Notes under the pieces: generated by a model | Seen by the model: the letters and a program-made list of their open reading frames with translations, nothing else | Database searches by the model: none | Told to the model about the DNA's origin: nothing | Shown here: piece after piece, positions 3-34,254 of the stretch | Position numbering within the stretch: position 1 is the first letter of the stretch | Layout of the letters: each line of letters opens with the position of its first letter | Virus record (IMG/VR): IMGVR_UViG_3300020202_000892 | Span: 1,667-65,666 of that record | Source of the DNA: a virus | DNA length: 64,000 bases | Direction: 5' to 3' (one strand) | Made by a program: the position numbers and the translations under genes

Positions 3-692
3 ATGGACCCACAGCAGTGGGACGCCATCGCCGCACCGGATCAGCTGGTGCTACCCAACGAGCCGGTCGTGGCCTTCTTCGACGGCTCGAAGAGCGACGA
101 CTCCACCGGCCTGGTCGGCTGCCGCCTGAGCGACGGGCATGTGTTCGTCATCGACTGCTGGGCGAAGCCAGCCGGCGAACGCGGCAAGAACTGGATCGTG
201 CCGCGCCAGGAGGTCGACGAGGCGGTGTCGGCGATGTTCGACGCCTACAAGGTGCTCGCCTTCTTCGCCGACCCCTCAGACACCCGCGATGACACCGGCG
301 AGCGGTTCTGGGAGCCGTTCGTGGACGACTGGCACCAGCGTTACGGCCCGCAGCTCAAGCTCTGGTCGGTGCAGTCCGGCGACCGGAAGCATTCGATCTC
401 CTGGGACATGCGCTCGCGCGAGCACCTGAACCTCTTCACCGGCGCGGCGGAGCGCTTCGTCGCCGAGGTGGCCGCGCAGCGCTTCAGCCACGACGGCGAC
501 ATGAGGTTGAGGCAGCACGTCAGGAACGCGCGCCGTCGGCCCAACGACTACGGCGTCTCACTCGGCAAGGAACACCGCGAGAGCGCCCGCAAGGTCGACC
601 TGGCGGTGTGCGCGGTCGGCGCGCGGATGCTGCGCCGGCTCTACCAGAACAAGGACACGTCCACGAAGCAGCGAAGCGGGAAGGTGTGGTAG
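3..692 (+). CDS. terL: Terminase large subunit, C-terminal nuclease domain (5' truncated by window)
   Basis: FFDGSKSDDSTGLV and KVDLAVCAVGA RNase H-like terminase nuclease motifs; directly upstream of the portal. Confidence 0.93.
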   Translation: MDPQQWDAIAAPDQLVLPNEPVVAFFDGSKSDDSTGLVGCRLSDGHVFVIDCWAKPAGERGKNWIVPRQEVDEAVSAMFDAYKVLAFFADPSDTRDDTGERFWEPFVDDWHQRYGPQLKLWSVQSGDRKHSISWDMRSREHLNLFTGAAERFVAEVAAQRFSHDGDMRLRQHVRNARRRPNDYGVSLGKEHRESARKVDLAVCAVGARMLRRLYQNKDTSTKQRSGKVW

Positions 693-695
693 ATC

Positions 696-2141
696 GTGCT
701 TTCCCCCCAGCAGGCCGTGAAGCTGGTCAAGGATGAGCTCTACCCCGGCTGGGAGTCCGATCGAGACCGGCTGCGCCGCATCGACTGGTGGTACCGCTGG
801 GAGCAGGAGGACGTCCCGATCCCGCGCATGGCCACCTCCGAGCTCAAGCGCCTTGCGCAGCTGAGTCGGGTGCCGTGGCTGAGCCTGGTGGTCACCTCGT
901 GCGCGCAGGCGATGTACGTCGACGGGTTCCGCTCGGAGCTCGACCGCGACGACACGCGGGCCACCCAGGAGCAGCAGTCCTCCCCGCCGTGGCGGACGTG
1001 GTTGGCCAACGGGATGGACCGCAGGCAGATCGCGCTGCACCGCGCCGCGCTGGCCTACGGCTGGAGCTTCGGCAAGGTGCTGCCCGGCGAGGACCCGGTC
1101 ACCGGCCGGTCGATGTCGGTCATCCGCGGCGTGAGCCCGCGCAAGATGTTCGCCCTGTGGGACGACGTCTCCGAGGACGACTGGCCGCAGTACACGATGC
1201 AGATCATCGAGACGGTGAAGAGCGGCGCCATGCTGGTGCGGGTGCTTGACGACACCGCCGAGCACGAGCTGCGCATCGACACCGGCGGCACCGACATCGA
1301 TTACCTCGGACAGCGCGGCGTGCATGACGCAGGCGTGTGCCCGGTGGTCCGCTTCGCCAACATGCTCGACCTGGAGGGTCGCAGCCCGGGTGAGGTCGAG
1401 CCACACATCCCGCTGGCCGCACGGATCAACAAGACCAGCTACGACCGGCTGCTGACCCAGCACTTCGCCTCCTGGCGCGTTCGCTACGTGACCGGCATGG
1501 CCGAGCCGGACACCGAGGAAGACCAGATCCGCACGAAGCTGAAGCTGCGCCAGGACGACCTGCTGATCGCCGAGGACCCCGACACGAAGTTCGGCACGCT
1601 GGAGGCCTCAGACCTGTCCGGGTTCATCGCCTCGCACCGCAACGACGTCGAGACCCTGGCCGCGGTCAGCCAGACCCCCACGCACGAGCTCACCGGGCAG
1701 ATGGCCAACCTCTCGGCGGAGGCCCTGGCGGCCGCGCGGGCGAGCCTGAACCAGAAGGTCACCGAGCGGCAGAAGAGCTTCGGCGCCAGCCACGCGCAGA
1801 TGTTGCGGCTCGCGGTCGCGCTCGAGGGCGACGAGCAGTACTCGACCGACCCGACCGGACGCGTCACCTGGCAGGACATGGAGATCCGTTCCATGAGCCA
1901 GGCCGCGGACGCGCTCGGCAAGATGGCCGAGATGCTGCACGTGCCGGTCACCGCGCTCTGGGCGCTCATCCCCGGCGTGGAGAAGACGGACGTCGCGGAG
2001 TGGATCAAGCTCGCCGAGGAAGGCGACCCGGTCACGAAGATGGTCGAGCGGATGGAGCGCCAGCGCCGGACCGCCGAGATCCGTGCGCGGCAGGCCGCCA
2101 CCCCGCCACCGGAGCCGGCGCGCGATGGCGTCGACGCCTGA
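696..2141 (+). CDS. Portal protein (SPP1 gp6-like, actinophage type)
   Basis: 481 aa after TerL; PVVRFAN...GEVEP...INKT and TWQDMEIRSMSQAADALGK motifs. Confidence 0.92.
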   Translation: MLSPQQAVKLVKDELYPGWESDRDRLRRIDWWYRWEQEDVPIPRMATSELKRLAQLSRVPWLSLVVTSCAQAMYVDGFRSELDRDDTRATQEQQSSPPWRTWLANGMDRRQIALHRAALAYGWSFGKVLPGEDPVTGRSMSVIRGVSPRKMFALWDDVSEDDWPQYTMQIIETVKSGAMLVRVLDDTAEHELRIDTGGTDIDYLGQRGVHDAGVCPVVRFANMLDLEGRSPGEVEPHIPLAARINKTSYDRLLTQHFASWRVRYVTGMAEPDTEEDQIRTKLKLRQDDLLIAEDPDTKFGTLEASDLSGFIASHRNDVETLAAVSQTPTHELTGQMANLSAEALAAARASLNQKVTERQKSFGASHAQMLRLAVALEGDEQYSTDPTGRVTWQDMEIRSMSQAADALGKMAEMLHVPVTALWALIPGVEKTDVAEWIKLAEEGDPVTKMVERMERQRRTAEIRARQAATPPPEPARDGVDA

Positions 2142-27555: not shown

Positions 27556-27720
27556 ATGTTCGCTGTCGCCTCGGCGATTGCCGCGCTGCTGTGCTTCCTG
27601 CTGGCGTTCATCCTTGGCCTCGCAGGTACGGAGATCGGTGTCGACCTGGTCACGCTCGGGTTCGTGTTCGTGGCCACGTGGATGCTGGTGACCAGCCTGC
27701 CCGCCCGAGCTGTCAGGTGA
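27556..27720 (+). CDS. Small two-TM membrane protein (54 aa)
   Basis: GAGGAG RBS; fully hydrophobic MFAVASAIAALLCFLLAFILG... Confidence 0.65.
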   Translation: MFAVASAIAALLCFLLAFILGLAGTEIGVDLVTLGFVFVATWMLVTSLPARAVR

Positions 27721-27993: not shown

Positions 27994-28221
27994 TCAGCGT
28001 AGCCGGAAGCGCCGCACGCCGTCCTCACGCACGGTGCCGTCCCACTCGTAGATCAGCGGGGCGGGTAGTTCGAGCGACGCGTGGGGGTGCTTGTAGAGCT
28101 CCATGGATTCGAGCAGCGTTGGCCCCACCGGCAGGCGGAGGATTTTCGGCATCGTCCCGTCGGGGACGGCGAGCAGGGTGCCGTCCTTGATGCCACCGAT
28201 CAGCTCGATAGTGATGCTCAC
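27994..28221 (-). CDS. Hypothetical protein
   Basis: IELIGGIKDG motif; coupled overlap. Confidence 0.6.
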   Translation of the reverse strand: MSITIELIGGIKDGTLLAVPDGTMPKILRLPVGPTLLESMELYKHPHASLELPAPLIYEWDGTVREDGVRRFRLR

Positions 28222-28454
28222 CGGATCGACCTGGCCACGTAGCGGGCGCTCATCGCCGCGGTGTAGAGCGTGCAGCCGACCGAGCCGTGACAGATCGTCG
28301 CCTGGCAGTGACCGGACAGGTCGGGCGTGTGCTCGCGGATCATCCGGTCGATGTTCTCCAGCGGGCTGAAACGCTGCAGGGTTCTCACGATCATGAGCAT
28401 GTCCGCGGCGTCCACTGGAGACCTCTCCGTCGAGTTATCTGACGATCGTCGCAC
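28218..28454 (-). CDS. Hypothetical protein
   Basis: ORF track; start uncertain; H...C...C...C motif. Confidence 0.45.
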   Translation of the reverse strand: MRRSSDNSTERSPVDAADMLMIVRTLQRFSPLENIDRMIREHTPDLSGHCQATICHGSVGCTLYTAAMSARYVARSIR

Positions 28455-28484: not shown

Positions 28485-30050
28485 TCAGCTCTTGCCCAGT
28501 GCCCAGCGCAGCGCGCCGGTGGTCGCGTCGACGAGGTCGTCGTTGATCCGCGGACTCGGGAACATGACCATTTCGCGCTCCAGCTCCACGAACTCCTTGG
28601 CATGGAAGACGCGGTCGGTCTCGTACCACTGTAGTGCCTGCTCGACCCGGGCCTGCTTCGAGCTCGATGCCCAGTCGGTGATCAGATCCAGCCCGCGCGG
28701 CAGCCGAGCGTGTGACGGGTTGAGCATCTCCTTCCACAGGTCGCCGCCGTTGTTCACCTCGACGATGACCGTGCGCAGCGTCGGCTTGCGCGCGTGCAGG
28801 CGGTGGATCCGCTGGCGCAGCTGCTCGGCCGAGATCCGGAAGGCCTGCGCATACTCGATCACTGCGCGCTGCCGAGCCGGGTCGCGGCCGACGATGACCA
28901 TCGCCGTGCGGTCCGACGTCGCCTTCTTCGTGACCGCGCCGTCGATGAACAGGCAGTGCTCCCAGATCCCGCCGAAGCTCTCCGACGTCCGTCGCTTGAA
29001 CATGTCCTCCCTCCAGAAGCTGCCGGCGTCCTCGCCGAACGGTGAGGGGTCGAGCAGGTAGTTGAGCTGGAACTCGCGTGGCGTCTCATCCTTGGCGTTG
29101 CGGCGCAGGTTCTCGCCGAGGTGGGTCTCGGTCAGCGGCCAGCGCTCCGGCCACAGCGAGCGCTCCTCGCCGGTGTCCGGGTCGATCCGGATCCCGGGGA
29201 ACAGCCGCACCGTGATCTCGTTGTTCGCTACCCAGTCGATGTGGCGCCGTCCGCGGCCATGCTCGGCGACCCGGTGCATCACCGAGTCGTAGGAGGTAGT
29301 GGTGCCGGCTAGGAGGAACGCGGCGTGCGGGGCACCCATCGGGAGCACCGCCGCCTTGATCGCCGTCTCGATCTTGGACTTCTCCTTCTCCGGCAGCACC
29401 TCTTCGAGCGGCTCGATGTCGTCGCACACGAGCATGTCTGGGCGCGCGGAGCCGGACTTCTTGCCCAGCGTGTTCGAGCCCAGGCCCGCGGCGGCGATCG
29501 TCGCCCCGCCCCGGACCACCAACCGGTTGGTGTCGGAGGAGCCCGCGCGGCGGGCCGGTCGCAGGTGCGCGTAGTCCTGCAACAGCAGGTCGTTCTCGGC
29601 CAGCTCCCGGCGCAGGTTGGCCAACTGGTCGCGTGCCATGTTGTCGTTGTAGCTGAAGGCCATGAAGTACTCGCGGTGCCCGTGCGCCAGCGCCCACAGC
29701 GGCAGAATGAGGAAGCACCACGAGCTCTTCCCGACGCCGCGCGGCCCGACCCACGCCTCTCGCCAGCGCACCGGCTCGATCCAGTGCTTGCCGGCGCGCG
29801 ACAGCGCCAGGTGCATCTCGTTGAAGGTGGCCAGCGGTGGCGTGGTGCCCTGCAGCTTCAGGTGGTCCGAGAGGTAGACGATCGCGAAGTTCAGTGGCGA
29901 CTTGCGTGTGGACCGCTTGCGGTAGTCCGCCGAGGTGTCGACCAAGCGCGACCAGAGCGGCGAGACTTCCTTGCGGAACCATGGATTCCACGGACCCCGC
30001 GGTGCGCGCACCGTCGGCCGTGGTGGCGGGGGGACCAGCGCGAGGGTCAC
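28485..30050 (-). CDS. Second terminase large subunit-like protein (ATPase plus RNase H nuclease)
   Basis: Walker A GPRGVGKS, RPDMLVCDDIE Walker B, nuclease FIDGA..SDRTA, VEVNNGG, SKQAR, NDDLVDA; start set at the GTGA overlap. Confidence 0.88.
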   Translation of the reverse strand: MTLALVPPPPRPTVRAPRGPWNPWFRKEVSPLWSRLVDTSADYRKRSTRKSPLNFAIVYLSDHLKLQGTTPPLATFNEMHLALSRAGKHWIEPVRWREAWVGPRGVGKSSWCFLILPLWALAHGHREYFMAFSYNDNMARDQLANLRRELAENDLLLQDYAHLRPARRAGSSDTNRLVVRGGATIAAAGLGSNTLGKKSGSARPDMLVCDDIEPLEEVLPEKEKSKIETAIKAAVLPMGAPHAAFLLAGTTTSYDSVMHRVAEHGRGRRHIDWVANNEITVRLFPGIRIDPDTGEERSLWPERWPLTETHLGENLRRNAKDETPREFQLNYLLDPSPFGEDAGSFWREDMFKRRTSESFGGIWEHCLFIDGAVTKKATSDRTAMVIVGRDPARQRAVIEYAQAFRISAEQLRQRIHRLHARKPTLRTVIVEVNNGGDLWKEMLNPSHARLPRGLDLITDWASSSKQARVEQALQWYETDRVFHAKEFVELEREMVMFPSPRINDDLVDATTGALRWALGKS

Positions 30051-30226
30051 GTCTCCCGCCTCCACTCACTCTCGGATCGTTCGTATAGCCGGTACAGCGA
30101 CGGGTTCTCGTATGGGCAGGTGAGCAGCCTGCGTCGCGCCTCCTGCTCGTTGGAGGTCTCGCACCACACTCGGCCATCAGCCCCGGAGACCCGCCACCAT
30201 CGGCCGGGCACCCACTCCGCGGTCAT
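30047..30226 (-). CDS. Hypothetical protein
   Basis: ATGA overlap; WWRVSGADGRVWCETSNEQEA. Confidence 0.6.
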   Translation of the reverse strand: MTAEWVPGRWWRVSGADGRVWCETSNEQEARRRLLTCPYENPSLYRLYERSESEWRRET

Positions 30227-30579
30227 GCCGGCACGTCCCAGGTGTGCTGGCAGAACACGCACTCGCGCCGGTAGTGCTCGGCGGCCCCGGCCGCGCTCCG
30301 CCAGGTGAAGACCTCGTCCACGCTGCCGTCCGGGTGCTCGATCACCTTGACCGGCGTCGGGGGCTTCGCCGGGACGAGATCGAGCGAGTGGTGGCCCATG
30401 CCCCGGCACGACGGGCAGATCACCATCGGGTCAGCAGGCTCGATCCCGAGTGGCTGGGTGAACGGTGCGGGCTTCAGCTCGTCGGCGACGGCTCGCCGCT
30501 CTGCTCGCCACTCCCAGATCGCGCCCACGGCGAACAGGGTCAGGATGATGGCCAGCGTGACGATCTCGGCCGCGCTCAT
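30223..30579 (-). CDS. Membrane-anchored zinc-ribbon protein
   Basis: N-terminal TM; CPSC ... RECVFCQHTW. Confidence 0.65.
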   Translation of the reverse strand: MSAAEIVTLAIILTLFAVGAIWEWRAERRAVADELKPAPFTQPLGIEPADPMVICPSCRGMGHHSLDLVPAKPPTPVKVIEHPDGSVDEVFTWRSAAGAAEHYRRECVFCQHTWDVPA

Positions 30580-30887
30580 GATCGCACCCCGTCCGCCCAC
30601 CACTGCACGTCCTGTCGCTGCAGCGTCGGGAATCTCGACGGCTCGGCCTCCAGCTGCACCACGACCTCGTCCTCGCCGGTGATGCGCTCAGGCCCGATCT
30701 CGACGAGGCCCCAGTAGTGGATCTGTCGGTCCGCGCGGAAGACCGCGATCCAGCCCGGCACGAGCACGTGATTCGGGTCGATGCCGTGATGCCGTAGCCA
30801 GGCGCACCACTTCTCACGCTGGCCCAGGGAGGACCCGAACCAGGTGCGCCAGTCGATGACGAACAGCTCGTTCCAGTCACCCCTCAC
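30576..30887 (-). CDS. Hypothetical protein
   Basis: Coupled overlaps; CAWLRHHGIDP motif. Confidence 0.6.
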   Translation of the reverse strand: MRGDWNELFVIDWRTWFGSSLGQREKWCAWLRHHGIDPNHVLVPGWIAVFRADRQIHYWGLVEIGPERITGEDEVVVQLEAEPSRFPTLQRQDVQWWADGVRS

Positions 30888-31096
30888 GGAGACCGCCTCC
30901 CGCGGATGTAGCGCCAGTACGCAGCCCGGCGGCTCCTGGCCTCGGCCCGCACGCATTCGACGACCCGCTCGAGCCACGTCGGCGCGTCACCGCGGATCGG
31001 GACGTCGCGGCGGGCCAGCAGTTCGCCGACGCAGACTGCCAGGTACAGCGCGACCACGCCGAGCACGCAGGTTGCCGCGACCAGGAGCCAGATCAC
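30884..31096 (-). CDS. Small membrane protein
   Basis: N-terminal TM; overlaps neighbours. Confidence 0.6.
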   Translation of the reverse strand: MIWLLVAATCVLGVVALYLAVCVGELLARRDVPIRGDAPTWLERVVECVRAEARSRRAAYWRYIRGRRSP

Positions 31097-32007
31097 GACG
31101 CCTTCGCCGCCTCGCGCTCCTTGCGCGTCTTGGAGTACGGCGTCACCACCGGGTTGTCCTCCGAGACCGGCTCGCCGTCCTGCTCGCGGGCGATCTTGAG
31201 CCTGGGGATCTGGTCGGAGGACTGCAGACCGCCCTTCGGCAGCTGCACGCGGTACACCGGGATGTGCTGCACCCAGTCGTTCCAGGTGCGTACCAGTAGG
31301 TAGAAGTACTCGTTGCGGTTCACCCGCAGGTCTTCGCGCCGACGGCGGATCACCCAGTTGCGCAGCGCGGCGATCGCGTCGCCCTCCTGCAGGCCGTAGC
31401 CCAGCCGCAGCTTCTCGAAGAACTCGTTGATCACGAAGGCGTCCGAGTCGCGCGATGCGATCACGTGCACCGCACCCACCACAGCCGGCGAGATGGGCAC
31501 CAGCTTCATCATGGAGTCGCCCACCGTGGTGCCGCGATCAATCAGCGCGGTGTTCTCCGGTCGCTGGTAGTAGGCCAACAGCTCCGAGTGCGACAGCCGG
31601 AACTTGGTGTCCAGCATGTTGCGCAGGTCGTAGCGCACGAGCATGTTCGTCACCGCGGCGGCCCTCGGCGGGTTGGGCACCTCGTACATCGTGAACACGT
31701 CGGACGCCGTGCGCTTCTTGCCGACATCCATGTACGGCTGCGACTCATCAGCCAGGTTCGTGACCAGCACAAACTTCTGCGTGGTCTTGCTCAGCACTAC
31801 TGCCTGCAGCCGATTCTGACCGTCCAACAGCCGACCAGTCACGCCCACTCGGATCGGATCGCCGACGAAGCGCCACTTCCCGGCCTCCATCTGCCGGCGG
31901 TAGAGCTCGACCAACGAGAAGTCCATCTTGCGGTTGCGCTCGTTGTGCTCCAACAGCTCCAGAGCGCGCTCCGGGCCGATCTTAACGACCTCAATCTTCG
32001 GGTCCAT
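31093..32007 (-). CDS. ParB-like / DGQHR-domain protein
   Basis: GDPIRV...LLDGQNRLQAVV ParB/Srx-type core; GAGAGGAC RBS. Confidence 0.75.
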   Translation of the reverse strand: MDPKIEVVKIGPERALELLEHNERNRKMDFSLVELYRRQMEAGKWRFVGDPIRVGVTGRLLDGQNRLQAVVLSKTTQKFVLVTNLADESQPYMDVGKKRTASDVFTMYEVPNPPRAAAVTNMLVRYDLRNMLDTKFRLSHSELLAYYQRPENTALIDRGTTVGDSMMKLVPISPAVVGAVHVIASRDSDAFVINEFFEKLRLGYGLQEGDAIAALRNWVIRRRREDLRVNRNEYFYLLVRTWNDWVQHIPVYRVQLPKGGLQSSDQIPRLKIAREQDGEPVSEDNPVVTPYSKTRKEREAAKAS

Positions 32008-32022
32008 GATCTTGTCCTCTCG

Positions 32023-32370
32023 TCAGGTCTTCTGCACTCGTAGTGGGGGTGGCTTGGGGAAGCGGTAGGGCCAGTGCGGACCGGGCACGTAACCGGTACC
32101 GCCACAGGGGATGCACGGCCGTGGCTCCCAGCTGTCCTCCGCCCCGTCATAGCGGTCGGACGGGTCGAGCTTGCCCGTGCCCTCGCACACCGGGCAAACA
32201 TCCGGCGGCGCGAACGGGCATTCGTAGCTATAGGTGTCCTCACCAAGCCATTGGCCGCCAACCAGCCGCACCGACTCGTGGCGCAGCTGGCGCTCCCAGT
32301 AGCCGCACTTGCCGCGCACGATCGTGAGCAGCGAAGTGCGGTAGAGGAAGTCGTCCAACAGCCCGCTCAT
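32023..32370 (-). CDS. Protein with DnaJ-type CxxCxGxG motifs
   Basis: CPVCEGTG and CIPCGGTG. Confidence 0.65.
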   Translation of the reverse strand: MSGLLDDFLYRTSLLTIVRGKCGYWERQLRHESVRLVGGQWLGEDTYSYECPFAPPDVCPVCEGTGKLDPSDRYDGAEDSWEPRPCIPCGGTGYVPGPHWPYRFPKPPPLRVQKT

Positions 32371-32455
32371 GGCGACCTGCACAGCGAGATGCGCTCGGCG
32401 AAGCGTGCGAACACCCGGTCGGGTACGACGTAGAGCCGTGAGGGGCCGAGGTGGA

Positions 32456-32833
32456 TCATGGCCCGGCGATCTCCTTCTCGATGCGCGCCACGACGTCGGC
32501 CAGCTCTAGCGCGTAGCGGTCGCTCACGCTGTCGTCTGCCTTCACGAACTGGCGCGCCGCGGTCAGCAGCTCGTTTCGCTGGCGCTCCATGTCGGCCTTC
32601 GCCTTGGCCTCGTACCGCTGCAGCCGCTCCAGCAACGCCTTCCGCTGCTCGCGTGCCTTCTCGGTGACCTCCGTGGTCACCGTCTCCAGGCTCCGGATCA
32701 GGCCGGCCATGTAGGTGAGATGCACGGCGGCCCGCTCCTTGAGTCCGGCCTCGTGACCACGCTGCACGTCGCACAGCTCCTCGGCCAGCTTCATGGCCTG
32801 GTCGGCGGCCTCTTCCAGCCAGCCGGTCACCAT
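32456..32833 (-). CDS. Hypothetical coiled-coil protein
   Basis: ORF track; helical heptads. Confidence 0.6.
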   Translation of the reverse strand: MVTGWLEEAADQAMKLAEELCDVQRGHEAGLKERAAVHLTYMAGLIRSLETVTTEVTEKAREQRKALLERLQRYEAKAKADMERQRNELLTAARQFVKADDSVSDRYALELADVVARIEKEIAGP

Positions 32834-33231
32834 GCCCCCGGGTACGCACCAACGCCGCCCAGCGCCATCCGCGCCTTCGAGATGTTGAGCAGCATCGTGG
32901 TGCCGCTCTCCAGACTGACGAATCCCTCGTCGATGCCCTCCTGCACCCGGTCGCGCAACTGGGTCAGGTGCTCCAGCTCCTCGGCGCGCAGCTTCTCGCG
33001 CTCGGTCATCTGGCGCTGCAGATGCTCGGACGAGGGCTGCGGGTGGAACTGCAGGGGCGGGCCGGTCACCCGCAGCTCGCCAGCCCGAGAGGGGACCCCC
33101 ATCGGCTCCTTCAGCCGCGGCTTGTCCTCCACCGGGTCCTCGTCGGCGAGCGTGCGCGACGGGGGTGGTTCGAGCAGCTCCGCCTTCGCCTCCCGGTACT
33201 CCTCGTCGTCCCTAGTCCATGAGTCCGTCAT
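32827..33231 (-). CDS. Hypothetical protein
   Basis: ORF track; GGAGAG RBS. Confidence 0.55.
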   Translation of the reverse strand: MTDSWTRDDEEYREAKAELLEPPPSRTLADEDPVEDKPRLKEPMGVPSRAGELRVTGPPLQFHPQPSSEHLQRQMTEREKLRAEELEHLTQLRDRVQEGIDEGFVSLESGTTMLLNISKARMALGGVGAYPGAW

Positions 33232-33730
33232 TACTCTCCATCTCCTCCATCTCCTGCTCGTGCTGGGTGACCCGGCGCAGCTCCTCCAGGATCGCCATAT
33301 CCGGGTGCGCGGTCTCGGCGACCGAGAACTCCGTCTTGTTGGTCGGCGCCACCGCGGCGTTGGTCAGCCGGGAGATCTCCTTCGACAGCGACAGCAGCAG
33401 CTTCATGCCGACGTCGAACGGGATCTCCGCGCGCTCCACCGCGGCCCGGGTGGACTCCTGATAGTGCTCGAGCTTGCCGAGCTGGGTGAGGCGCACGTGC
33501 TCGGCGGCGTAGATGTCGAGCACCTTCTCCTGGCGCCGGACGTCGTTGACCCACTTCACGATCGTGACGTGCGAGACGTAGATCTTGCGCTCGGCCTGCC
33601 ACTTCTTCGAGATCGACCGCGAACCCATATCCTGGGTGTCCATCAGCTGCCAGGCCTCGACTGCCAGCTCCGCTCGCTCCTCGGCCGTGAGCGAGCCGCG
33701 CTTGAGGCGCTCTCCGTCGCTCACAGTCAC
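33212..33730 (-). CDS. Terminase small subunit-like HTH protein
   Basis: ERAELAVEAWQL...SRSIS...VSHVTIVKWV HTH, then RLTQLGKLE...LLSLSKEISRL, a TerS-like layout. Confidence 0.5.
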   Translation of the reverse strand: MTVSDGERLKRGSLTAEERAELAVEAWQLMDTQDMGSRSISKKWQAERKIYVSHVTIVKWVNDVRRQEKVLDIYAAEHVRLTQLGKLEHYQESTRAAVERAEIPFDVGMKLLLSLSKEISRLTNAAVAPTNKTEFSVAETAHPDMAILEELRRVTQHEQEMEEMESNDGLMD

Positions 33731-33931: not shown

Positions 33932-34254
33932 CAGTCCCTCCCCGGCGTGGCCAGCGGCGCGTTGGCCGCCTGCAGCCGCTCCAGCAACGCCTTGGCGTCG
34001 GCCTCGCGCTTCGCCTTGCGCTCCGGCGTCAGCTCGGTCACCCGGACGTCGATGTCAACCTCGAACTCGCGACCGTCGCGCACCACGGTGAACGGCCAGT
34101 CGCCCTCGTCGTCCTCGTCGTCGCCAGCCCAGGTGTAGCCGTACAGGCCAGACGAGCCGTAGCCGATGCGACCGACGACCTCGGTGTCGATCGCGTTGAC
34201 GAAGTCGCTCTCGACGTCGTGCTCGGTGAAGGCGGGCTTCTCGGCGGGGCTCAT
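33931..34254 (-). CDS. Hypothetical protein
   Basis: ATGA overlap; acidic. Confidence 0.6.
   Translation of the reverse strand: MSPAEKPAFTEHDVESDFVNAIDTEVVGRIGYGSSGLYGYTWAGDDEDDEGDWPFTVVRDGREFEVDIDVRVTELTPERKAKREADAKALLERLQAANAPLATPGRD

Follow-up and report, generated by a model that had tools for sequence, protein, structure and literature searches.

A second terminase in an actinophage genome

The viral record IMGVR_UViG_3300020202_000892 of IMG/VR (hereafter G000) is a linear contig of 69,919 bp, ~92% complete. The window analysed here is a 64,000-nucleotide stretch of it (contig bases 1667-65666), with a G+C content of 69% throughout. Its source is an uncultured soil actinophage, since the closest isolated relatives of its portal are those of Gordonia phages (~49% identity). 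Gene calls made with a codon model resolve a rightward arm that carries, in order, a TerS1 candidate, a gene of 64 amino acids (aa), the large terminase TerL1, the portal, and the head, tail, sortase and lysis genes, ending at window position 27720. The TerS1 candidate (a weak Terminase_4 match) and the N-terminus of TerL1 lie just left of the window, the full TerL1 gene spanning contig bases 604-2358. Converging on this arm is a leftward operon of ~14 kb and ~40 mostly small genes (window 42149 to 27994), and the right part of the genome encodes a helicase, a primase-polymerase fusion, RusA, a Cas4-like exonuclease and a Ro60-type protein. Our subject is a pair of genes in the leftward operon: TerL2, a second large terminase, and TerS2, a gene of small-terminase type 3.2 kb upstream of it.

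The original prediction, made from the letters of the window, placed an intact ATPase-nuclease terminase at 28485-30050, and our analyses bear it out. The open reading frame (ORF) runs uninterrupted from 28485 to 30065 on the minus strand; homologue N-termini align with the GTG at 30050 (MT/VT-LALVPPPPR), which therefore gives the best gene model, of 521 aa. The protein matches phrog_38 ('terminase large subunit') in PHROG at E 3.3e-67 and Terminase_6C (PF17289) in Pfam at 22.7 bits (cut-off 22.6); its 58-bit score to NCBIfam termin_lrg_T7 falls below the cut-off of 150. All the motifs first quoted are present and, in an alignment (A1) of 31 homologues at 89-31% identity, invariant: Walker A GPRGVGKS (P108, R109, K113), Walker B LVCDD (D215, D216) and the nuclease acidic residues D375, E436, D510 and D513, together with G254 and T255 of the coupling motif GTTT. 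An AlphaFold2 (AF2) model, with a predicted local distance difference test score (pLDDT) of 88 and a predicted template modelling score (pTM) of 0.84, matched large terminases alone in a Foldseek search of the PDB (E 4e-16 to 4e-8). The two-domain fold is that of PhiV-1 TerL (8dgc, E 4e-16), T4 gp17 (3cpe), D6E (5oe8), HK97 (6z6d) and Sf6 gp2 (4idh); these solved proteins share just 9-14% sequence identity with TerL2 and, unlike it, are all portal-docking packaging motors.

TerL2 also reads as a native gene of its operon. Its dN/dS is 0.26 against the closest homologue (L104), a value taken from the closest pair, as other rates were from within-pair comparisons, with synonymous sites saturating at a low proportion of synonymous differences (pS) under 92% G+C at third codon positions (GC3). 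The G+C content of its three codon positions (0.65/0.48/0.92) is the same as in TerL1 and the portal, and the gene is chained to those upstream through ATGA and GTGA overlaps and preceded by a GGAGG Shine-Dalgarno sequence. By these measures TerL2 is intact and under purifying selection, and the degenerating gene that the original prediction allowed for is not what we found. A repeat search detected no att-like repeats bracketing the TerS2-TerL2 module. We found no integrase, portal or capsid gene in the leftward operon, as originally claimed for the portal and capsid; its only ORFs above 200 aa are TerL2 and a 304-aa phrog_5931 protein, and the nearest portal lies ~26 kb away, beside TerL1. 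PADLOC defence models gave no match to TerL2, TerS2 or the genes around them, except for coiled-coil noise to ZorA.

TerL1 and TerL2 are both terminases with an additional-strand-conserved-E (ASCE) ATPase and an RNase H-like nuclease, housed in the same genome. TerL1 (phrog_9; HK97/Terminase_1-like) differs in adjoining an SPP1-type portal and in its basic, aromatic C-terminus (...KQRSGKVW). Its type is the sole annotated TerL in >1500 isolated actinophage records, and the family motifs are invariant. The two proteins have no pairwise similarity (best BLASTP E 0.5) and so represent two lineages rather than duplicates; this accounts for the earlier remark that the nuclease motifs of TerL2 are unlike those of TerL1.

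The call of a TerS-like gene ~3 kb upstream in the same operon was originally tentative. It has been strengthened because TerS2 (P0002) co-occurs with TerL2 across genomes and is homologous to an annotated TerS. TerS2 homologues lie 0-4 kb upstream of TerL2 in 7/7 genomes tested, and in the most distant of these (L008) the homologue overlaps the start of TerL2, the classic TerS-TerL arrangement. A profile search of the TerS2 family gathered 390 representatives, and a 70-sequence profile (A3) matched gene 4 of phage OscarSo, bioinformatically annotated as 'terminase small subunit', over nearly its full length (54.7 bits, E 1e-17); the OscarSo TerL is the closest isolated relative of TerL2. By itself, TerS2 has no Pfam or PHROG family match. 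Among the 70 family members, 52 match phrog_645, and a phrog_645 protein of the related genome G001 (L095:10354-10791) lies upstream of the primary TerL and portal, in the position of a TerS. PHROG labels phrog_645 'Rnase E'; its members are proteins of 145-200 aa with a helix-turn-helix (HTH), and the family looks like one of small terminases, with the label wrong.

The AF2 model of TerS2 (pLDDT 88.5) comprises HTH helices (16-33 and 37-48), a hairpin (54-123), a linker and an acidic C-terminal helix (145-167). On architecture alone, this predicted layout of HTH, helical core and C-terminal segment is TerS-like. Foldseek returned no significant PDB match for the model. In a wide VIA search, G20c TerS (4xvn_A; Z 6.8 over 107 aa, root-mean-square deviation 7.1) tied with generic helical hairpins and was the sole match covering most of the model. 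By homology and synteny, a small-terminase identity is well supported for TerS2, which would be expected to bind DNA and form oligomers.

Insertions are a further feature of these families. Six TerL2 homologues carry inteins exactly at Walker A (between GK and S) or Walker B, which are classic terminase intein sites (PMC5050341). The TerL2-family members of ~900 aa with an insert at the Walker A K/S boundary or at Walker B are P0020, P0031, P0038, P0051, P0052 and P0055, and the LAGLIDADG family PF14528 is recorded in 4/6 of them (not P0052 or P0055). Family members of ~900 aa also occur on the TerL1 side (P0091, P0142, P0145, P0171 and P0181), with PF14528 recorded for P0091 and P0145; P0142, P0171 and P0181 are counted there on length alone, their alignments covering 63% of the query.

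Conservation and origin of TerS2-TerL2

Megablast of the TerL2 region against isolated phages gave no match, and a single-protein scan of IMG/VR returned no homologues; a search with the family alignment did find them. TerL2 holds the same position in all 14 further contigs or records inspected: it closes, or nearly closes, the 3' end of a long operon of non-structural genes, and one to a few small genes stand between it and the convergent lysis/sortase/tail arm. Loci with this junction, with TerL2 identity to G000 in brackets, are L104 (89%), L105 (76%), L004/G001 (64%), L002 (59%), L003 (58%), L007 (45%), L009 (36%) and L008 (31%), together with G002, G003, L016, L022 and L025.

A portal-adjacent primary terminase and TerS2-TerL2 occur together in five genomes. 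G000 itself (TerL2 as the 100% reference) has the phrog_9 TerL1, and TerL1 homologues accompany TerL2 in G003 (83% for TerL1, 45% for TerL2) and apparently in a 70,601-bp contig (90% and 59%; P0093 and P0032). Two other genomes, G002 and the complete G001 with its 127-bp terminal repeat, pair a TerL2 of 64% identity with a primary phrog_2 TerL beside a portal-MuF fusion. The head module of G001 and G002 is wholly unlike that of G000, comprising the phrog_2 TerL, a 931-aa portal-MuF fusion (phrog_2662, against the SPP1-like phrog_104 of G000) and different capsid genes; G003 has the phrog_9/SPP1-like type, as G000 does. Common to all three are the distal tail, sortase and lysis genes, the early operon of small genes, and TerS2-TerL2. 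The difference is a whole head-module swap, a clear instance of modular mosaicism. TerS2-TerL2, being shared across unrelated head modules, therefore travels with the non-structural/lysis junction rather than with the portal or primary terminase.

Rates of change tell a similar story of exchange. Between G000 and G003, divergence is greater in TerL2 than in TerL1. In the G001/G002 pair it is smaller in TerL2 than in the primary TerL, the dN of TerL2 (0.22) equalling that of the portal and the primary TerL reaching 0.41. We considered and rejected the idea that TerL2 is simply faster-evolving than TerL1, as the G001/G002 pair shows the opposite; such pair-dependent relative rates argue for mosaic exchange, not decay. 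In addition, several near-complete relatives (64.9-72.3 kb) bear TerL1 and fall outside the set with TerL2 matches: the contigs holding the TerL1 proteins P0110, P0111, P0119, P0144, P0160 and P0164, at identities of 81, 83, 78, 73, 67 and 63%. Indirectly, this suggests that some close relatives may lack TerS2-TerL2.

The nearest characterised relatives of TerL2 are packaging terminases. Wherever an isolated phage has a full-length gene of the TerL2 type, that gene is its sole terminase and lies 2-6 kb from the genome's left end. These isolates include Microbacterium phage OscarSo, Streptomyces phages Wentworth, Dryad, Gibson, Zuko and KimJongPhill, and the Streptomyces satellites MiniFlayer and MulchRoom (PMC10690885). 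Their TerLs resemble TerL2 in family (phrog_38), sequence (30-35% identity over ~90% of the length) and catalytic motifs, which are identical, and the OscarSo TerS belongs to the TerS2 family. They differ from it in having their own portal directly downstream and a C-terminal tail of 24-35 aa, whereas TerL2 has neither, stands at the end of a non-structural operon and shares its genome with another terminase. Among IMG/VR family members at <=38% identity, 22/27 loci likewise have a Wentworth/Mulchroom-type portal directly downstream.

The phylogenetic check proposed with the original prediction was run on the TerL2 family and separates orphans from portal-adjacent enzymes. In the maximum-likelihood tree, a branch with 97% support in the Shimodaira-Hasegawa-like approximate likelihood ratio test (SH-aLRT) parts 20/20 verified portal-adjacent TerLs from 9/9 verified orphans, and three further loci on the orphan side (L016, L022 and L025) have no adjacent portal. 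A portal lies directly downstream in 20/20 of the primary relatives and in none of the orphan loci.

The C-terminal tail follows the same division. TerL2 ends 13 aa after its last catalytic Asp, which is also the median for orphans; the median for primaries is 26 aa. Every verified portal-adjacent member has a tail of 24-35 aa, a basic stretch ending in S/A-Y-A/V, as do 5/6 unverified proteins that group with them, and this basic, aromatic-ended tail is missing from 28/30 orphan-side proteins, TerL2 included. The tail at TerL's C-terminus is the portal- or procapsid-binding element in lambda, T3, P22 and T4 (PMC5389665), and P22 TerL lacking its basic C-terminal residues loses binding to the procapsid portal (PMC5290284). 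Portal binding has been proposed to restrain the TerL nuclease (PMC5389665), in which case loss of the tail would leave a TerL free to cut.

Neighbouring genes

Coordinates of the features at the locus are collected in Table 1. In relatives too, as with the 60-aa ORF of G000, the start of TerL2 is overlapped over 4 nucleotides (nt) by a small gene; at the distant orphan-side locus L025, a 528-aa ORF (L025:8155-9741) shares 4 nt with the start of the TerL2-like gene. Family searches with the 126-, 103- and 70-aa genes gave no matches, and the 70-aa gene is conserved in L002. The 304-aa phrog_5931 protein has no Pfam match. Its family is annotated as 'ParB-like nuclease domain' or 'DNA-binding protein' in some actinophages, and a homologue lies at the packaging end of the genome in several isolated phages. 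It stands between TerS2 and TerL2 solely in G000 and L002 (54% identical) and is accessory. The 119-aa CxxC protein matches DnaJ_CXXCXGXG and anti-TRAP weakly and nothing more strongly.

Directly downstream of TerL2, the 65-aa gene is conserved at 41-69% identity in L002-L004 and G002. After TerL2 and this gene, the two closest relatives encode an HNH endonuclease of 105-115 aa (L104:1988-2305 and L105:11561-11908), where G000 has the 75-aa gene; tblastn detected no homologue of it in G000 (E > 0.06). Two otherwise unrelated genes flanking terS2 share an exact 24-nt direct repeat, CTGCAGCCGCTCCAGCAACGCCTT, at 32618-32641 and 33970-33993. Zero copies are expected by chance, and the repeat encodes KALLERLQ, the sole peptide common to both genes. 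It was not found in relatives; it may mark the boundary of a recombination event or bind a protein.

Table 1 Packaging genes, operon junction and TerS2-TerL2 locus in window coordinates
Feature	Position	Strand	Basis or remark
Canonical packaging module: TerL1 C-terminal 229 aa (3-692), SPP1-type portal (696-2141)	3-2141	+	phrog_9, phrog_104, PF05133
Likely bidirectional terminator: perfect 15-bp inverted repeat, 12-nt loop	27780-27821	.	Repeat search, sequence; between lysis arm and TerL2 operon
Last two leftward-operon genes: 65 aa (28218-28415), then 75 aa (27994-28221)	27994-28415	-	65-aa gene conserved
TerL2: orphan large terminase, 521 aa, ASCE ATPase and RNase H-like nuclease	28485-30050	-	phrog_38, motifs, AF2, PDB folds
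60-aa ORF (WWRVSG...CETSNEQEARRRL...)	30047-30229	-	GTGA overlap with TerL2, ATGA overlap with preceding 126-aa gene
Three small genes (126, 103, 70 aa) between ParB-like gene and TerL2	30223-31096	-	Codon-model calls
304-aa phrog_5931 protein	31093-32007	-	phrog_5931 E 9e-60; tblastn annotations
119-aa CxxC zinc-ribbon-like protein	32023-32382	-	blastp 42-53%; syntenic in L002, L003, L004
Two small genes (125-aa coiled-coil-like, 134 aa) between TerS2 and CxxC gene	32456-33231	-	Partly conserved in relatives
TerS2 (P0002): small-terminase-type, 172 aa	33212-33730	-	Synteny, OscarSo TerS profile match, phrog_645, AF2

Possible roles of a portal-free TerS2-TerL2 pair

On the evidence of sequence comparison, TerS2-TerL2 is a conserved and selected pair with intact catalytic residues that descends from a packaging terminase, lacks a portal of its own and the tail, and is indifferent to the head module of the phage. 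What such a pair does is an evenly balanced call: there is about an even chance that it is a holoenzyme exapted from a packaging terminase, acting off the capsid in ATP-dependent, TerS2-guided cutting or moving of DNA. The ancestor would have been an ordinary packaging terminase of the OscarSo/Wentworth/MiniFlayer family working with its own adjacent portal, which a clade of uncultured actinophages would have exapted as a complete holoenzyme. A TerS2 oligomer would use its HTH to bind a particular site on DNA and would recruit TerL2; the TerL2 ATPase would then grip or translocate the DNA, and the RNase H-like nuclease would cut it away from the capsid, without docking to a portal. Such an enzyme would be a site-directed DNA-processing machine rather than a packaging motor. 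Its substrate could be the replicating DNA of the phage itself, with ends made for recombination-dependent replication or for TerL1, or else the foreign DNA of a host, a prophage, a satellite or a co-infecting phage with a cognate pac-like site. A more pointed version, in which TerS2-TerL2 is a portal-independent, programmable ATP-dependent endonuclease/translocase directed during infection at a specific target, either the pac-type sites of rival phages, satellites or resident prophages or the phage's own replication intermediates, is possible but must be held more tentatively. Of the interpretations offered with the original prediction, a repurposed terminase is thus the one that gives the best reading.

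Several observations pull against an off-capsid role. A TerS partner is what a packaging enzyme would be expected to have, and HNH genes near a terminase, as in L104 and L105, are typical of cos-packaging modules (PMC9410871). The role of the tail as a portal-docking element in the TerL2 family is presumed by analogy with other phages; in T4 an alternative contact between ATPase and portal has been proposed (PMC5389665), and a 31-aa tail persists in two basal orphan-side proteins, P0068 and P0069. Midpoint rooting was used for the tree, 27/56 of whose rows have unverified genomic context, and the five genomes in which a separate primary terminase was looked for leave out the distant L007-L009, L016, L022 and L025.

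The most serious competitor is a second packaging enzyme that docks the resident portal and adds a second specificity, such as another pac site, host DNA in a transduction-like manner or another mode of initiation than that of TerS1-TerL1. The complete TerS and TerL with all motor and nuclease residues, the descent from true packaging terminases and the HNH cofactor-type genes that adjoin TerL2 in L104 and L105 (PMC9410871) all favour it. However, TerL2 lacks the tail kept by every verified portal-adjacent relative, sits at the end of a non-structural operon rather than among late genes, and persists with two unrelated portal families, which would be unexpected of a portal-specific motor; we consider this explanation unlikely, though not negligible. 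A related proposal is capsid piracy, whereby TerS2-TerL2 would package the genome of its phage into the capsids of a co-infecting phage or satellite with a Wentworth/BR/MiniFlayer-type portal, or sabotage that partner by competing for capsids. Its appeal is that the closest characterised relatives of TerL2 are the terminases of those very phages and of the satellites MiniFlayer and MulchRoom (PMC10690885). Yet the part that TerL2 has lost is the presumed portal-docking tail of that same family, to whose terminases it is just 30-35% identical, and we regard piracy as very improbable. Packaging-type uses in general fit poorly with the missing tail and with a module that is independent of the head module.

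Readings that deny TerS2-TerL2 an enzymatic role fare no better. One is the other origin originally suggested, a captured packaging module, from a satellite or a phage, of which TerS2-TerL2 would be a non-functional or selfish leftover; this would explain why no portal or capsid accompanies it and would suit a family that also occurs in satellites. Against this, the catalytic residues are invariant across homologues spanning 89-31% identity, dN/dS is 0.26, codon usage is native, the position is fixed in 14/14 further contigs or records, and translational coupling ties the gene into an operon with no integrase or att-like repeats; we give the remnant as slim a chance as piracy. Slighter again is the prospect that TerS2-TerL2 serves as a decoy or sponge against host defences that sense terminases, Avs among them. 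A TerL captured by Avs3 (8dgc_E) is the best match to the TerL2 fold in the PDB, placing that fold among the kind that Avs recognises. Avs proteins are activated by TerL, however, so that an extra copy would trigger Avs, not block it, and a decoy would have no need of invariant residues in the ATPase and nuclease or of a TerS partner that is conserved. The junction at ~27.8 kb had also raised the question of an assembly chimera of two phages, as this is a linear metagenomic contig. That explanation is refuted by synteny in independent contigs and is hardly credible now: the same junction and gene order recur in contigs from at least eight samples, one contig with terminal repeats, and G+C content and codon-position composition are uniform across the junction in G000.

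Extra terminase components are known from mobile elements. Staphylococcus aureus pathogenicity islands (SaPIs) and other phage-inducible chromosomal islands (PICIs) bring a TerS, and capsid-forming PICIs (cf-PICIs) a TerS, TerL and HNH protein, alongside those of the helper (as summarised in PMC10690885). In contrast to G000, these are separate mobile elements with integration or capsid genes of their own; TerS2-TerL2 is a fixed part of a phage genome, itself unaccompanied by an integrase, att sites or capsid genes. Among 50,697 records, we found no isolated phage with a second orphan terminase of the TerL2 kind, and a search of the literature on two, second or orphan terminases in one phage yielded nothing relevant. 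The 'terminase-like protein' of cluster C1 mycobacteriophages (PMC5050341) is a different matter and not a precedent.

Terminases are usually viewed as single-purpose packaging motors, one per phage and tied to the portal. TerS2-TerL2 has been kept under selection across swapped head modules without the segment by which its relatives appear to dock. If it acts off the capsid, a packaging motor has been exapted into a sequence-directed DNA-processing enzyme, and a complete TerS-TerL holoenzyme would for the first time be documented in a job other than packaging. Such a role would bear on conflict between phages and satellites, on the coupling of replication to packaging, and on how Avs senses phages with two terminases. 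For metagenomes, the locus counsels caution in typing packaging strategy, or in counting phages, by 'the' terminase gene.

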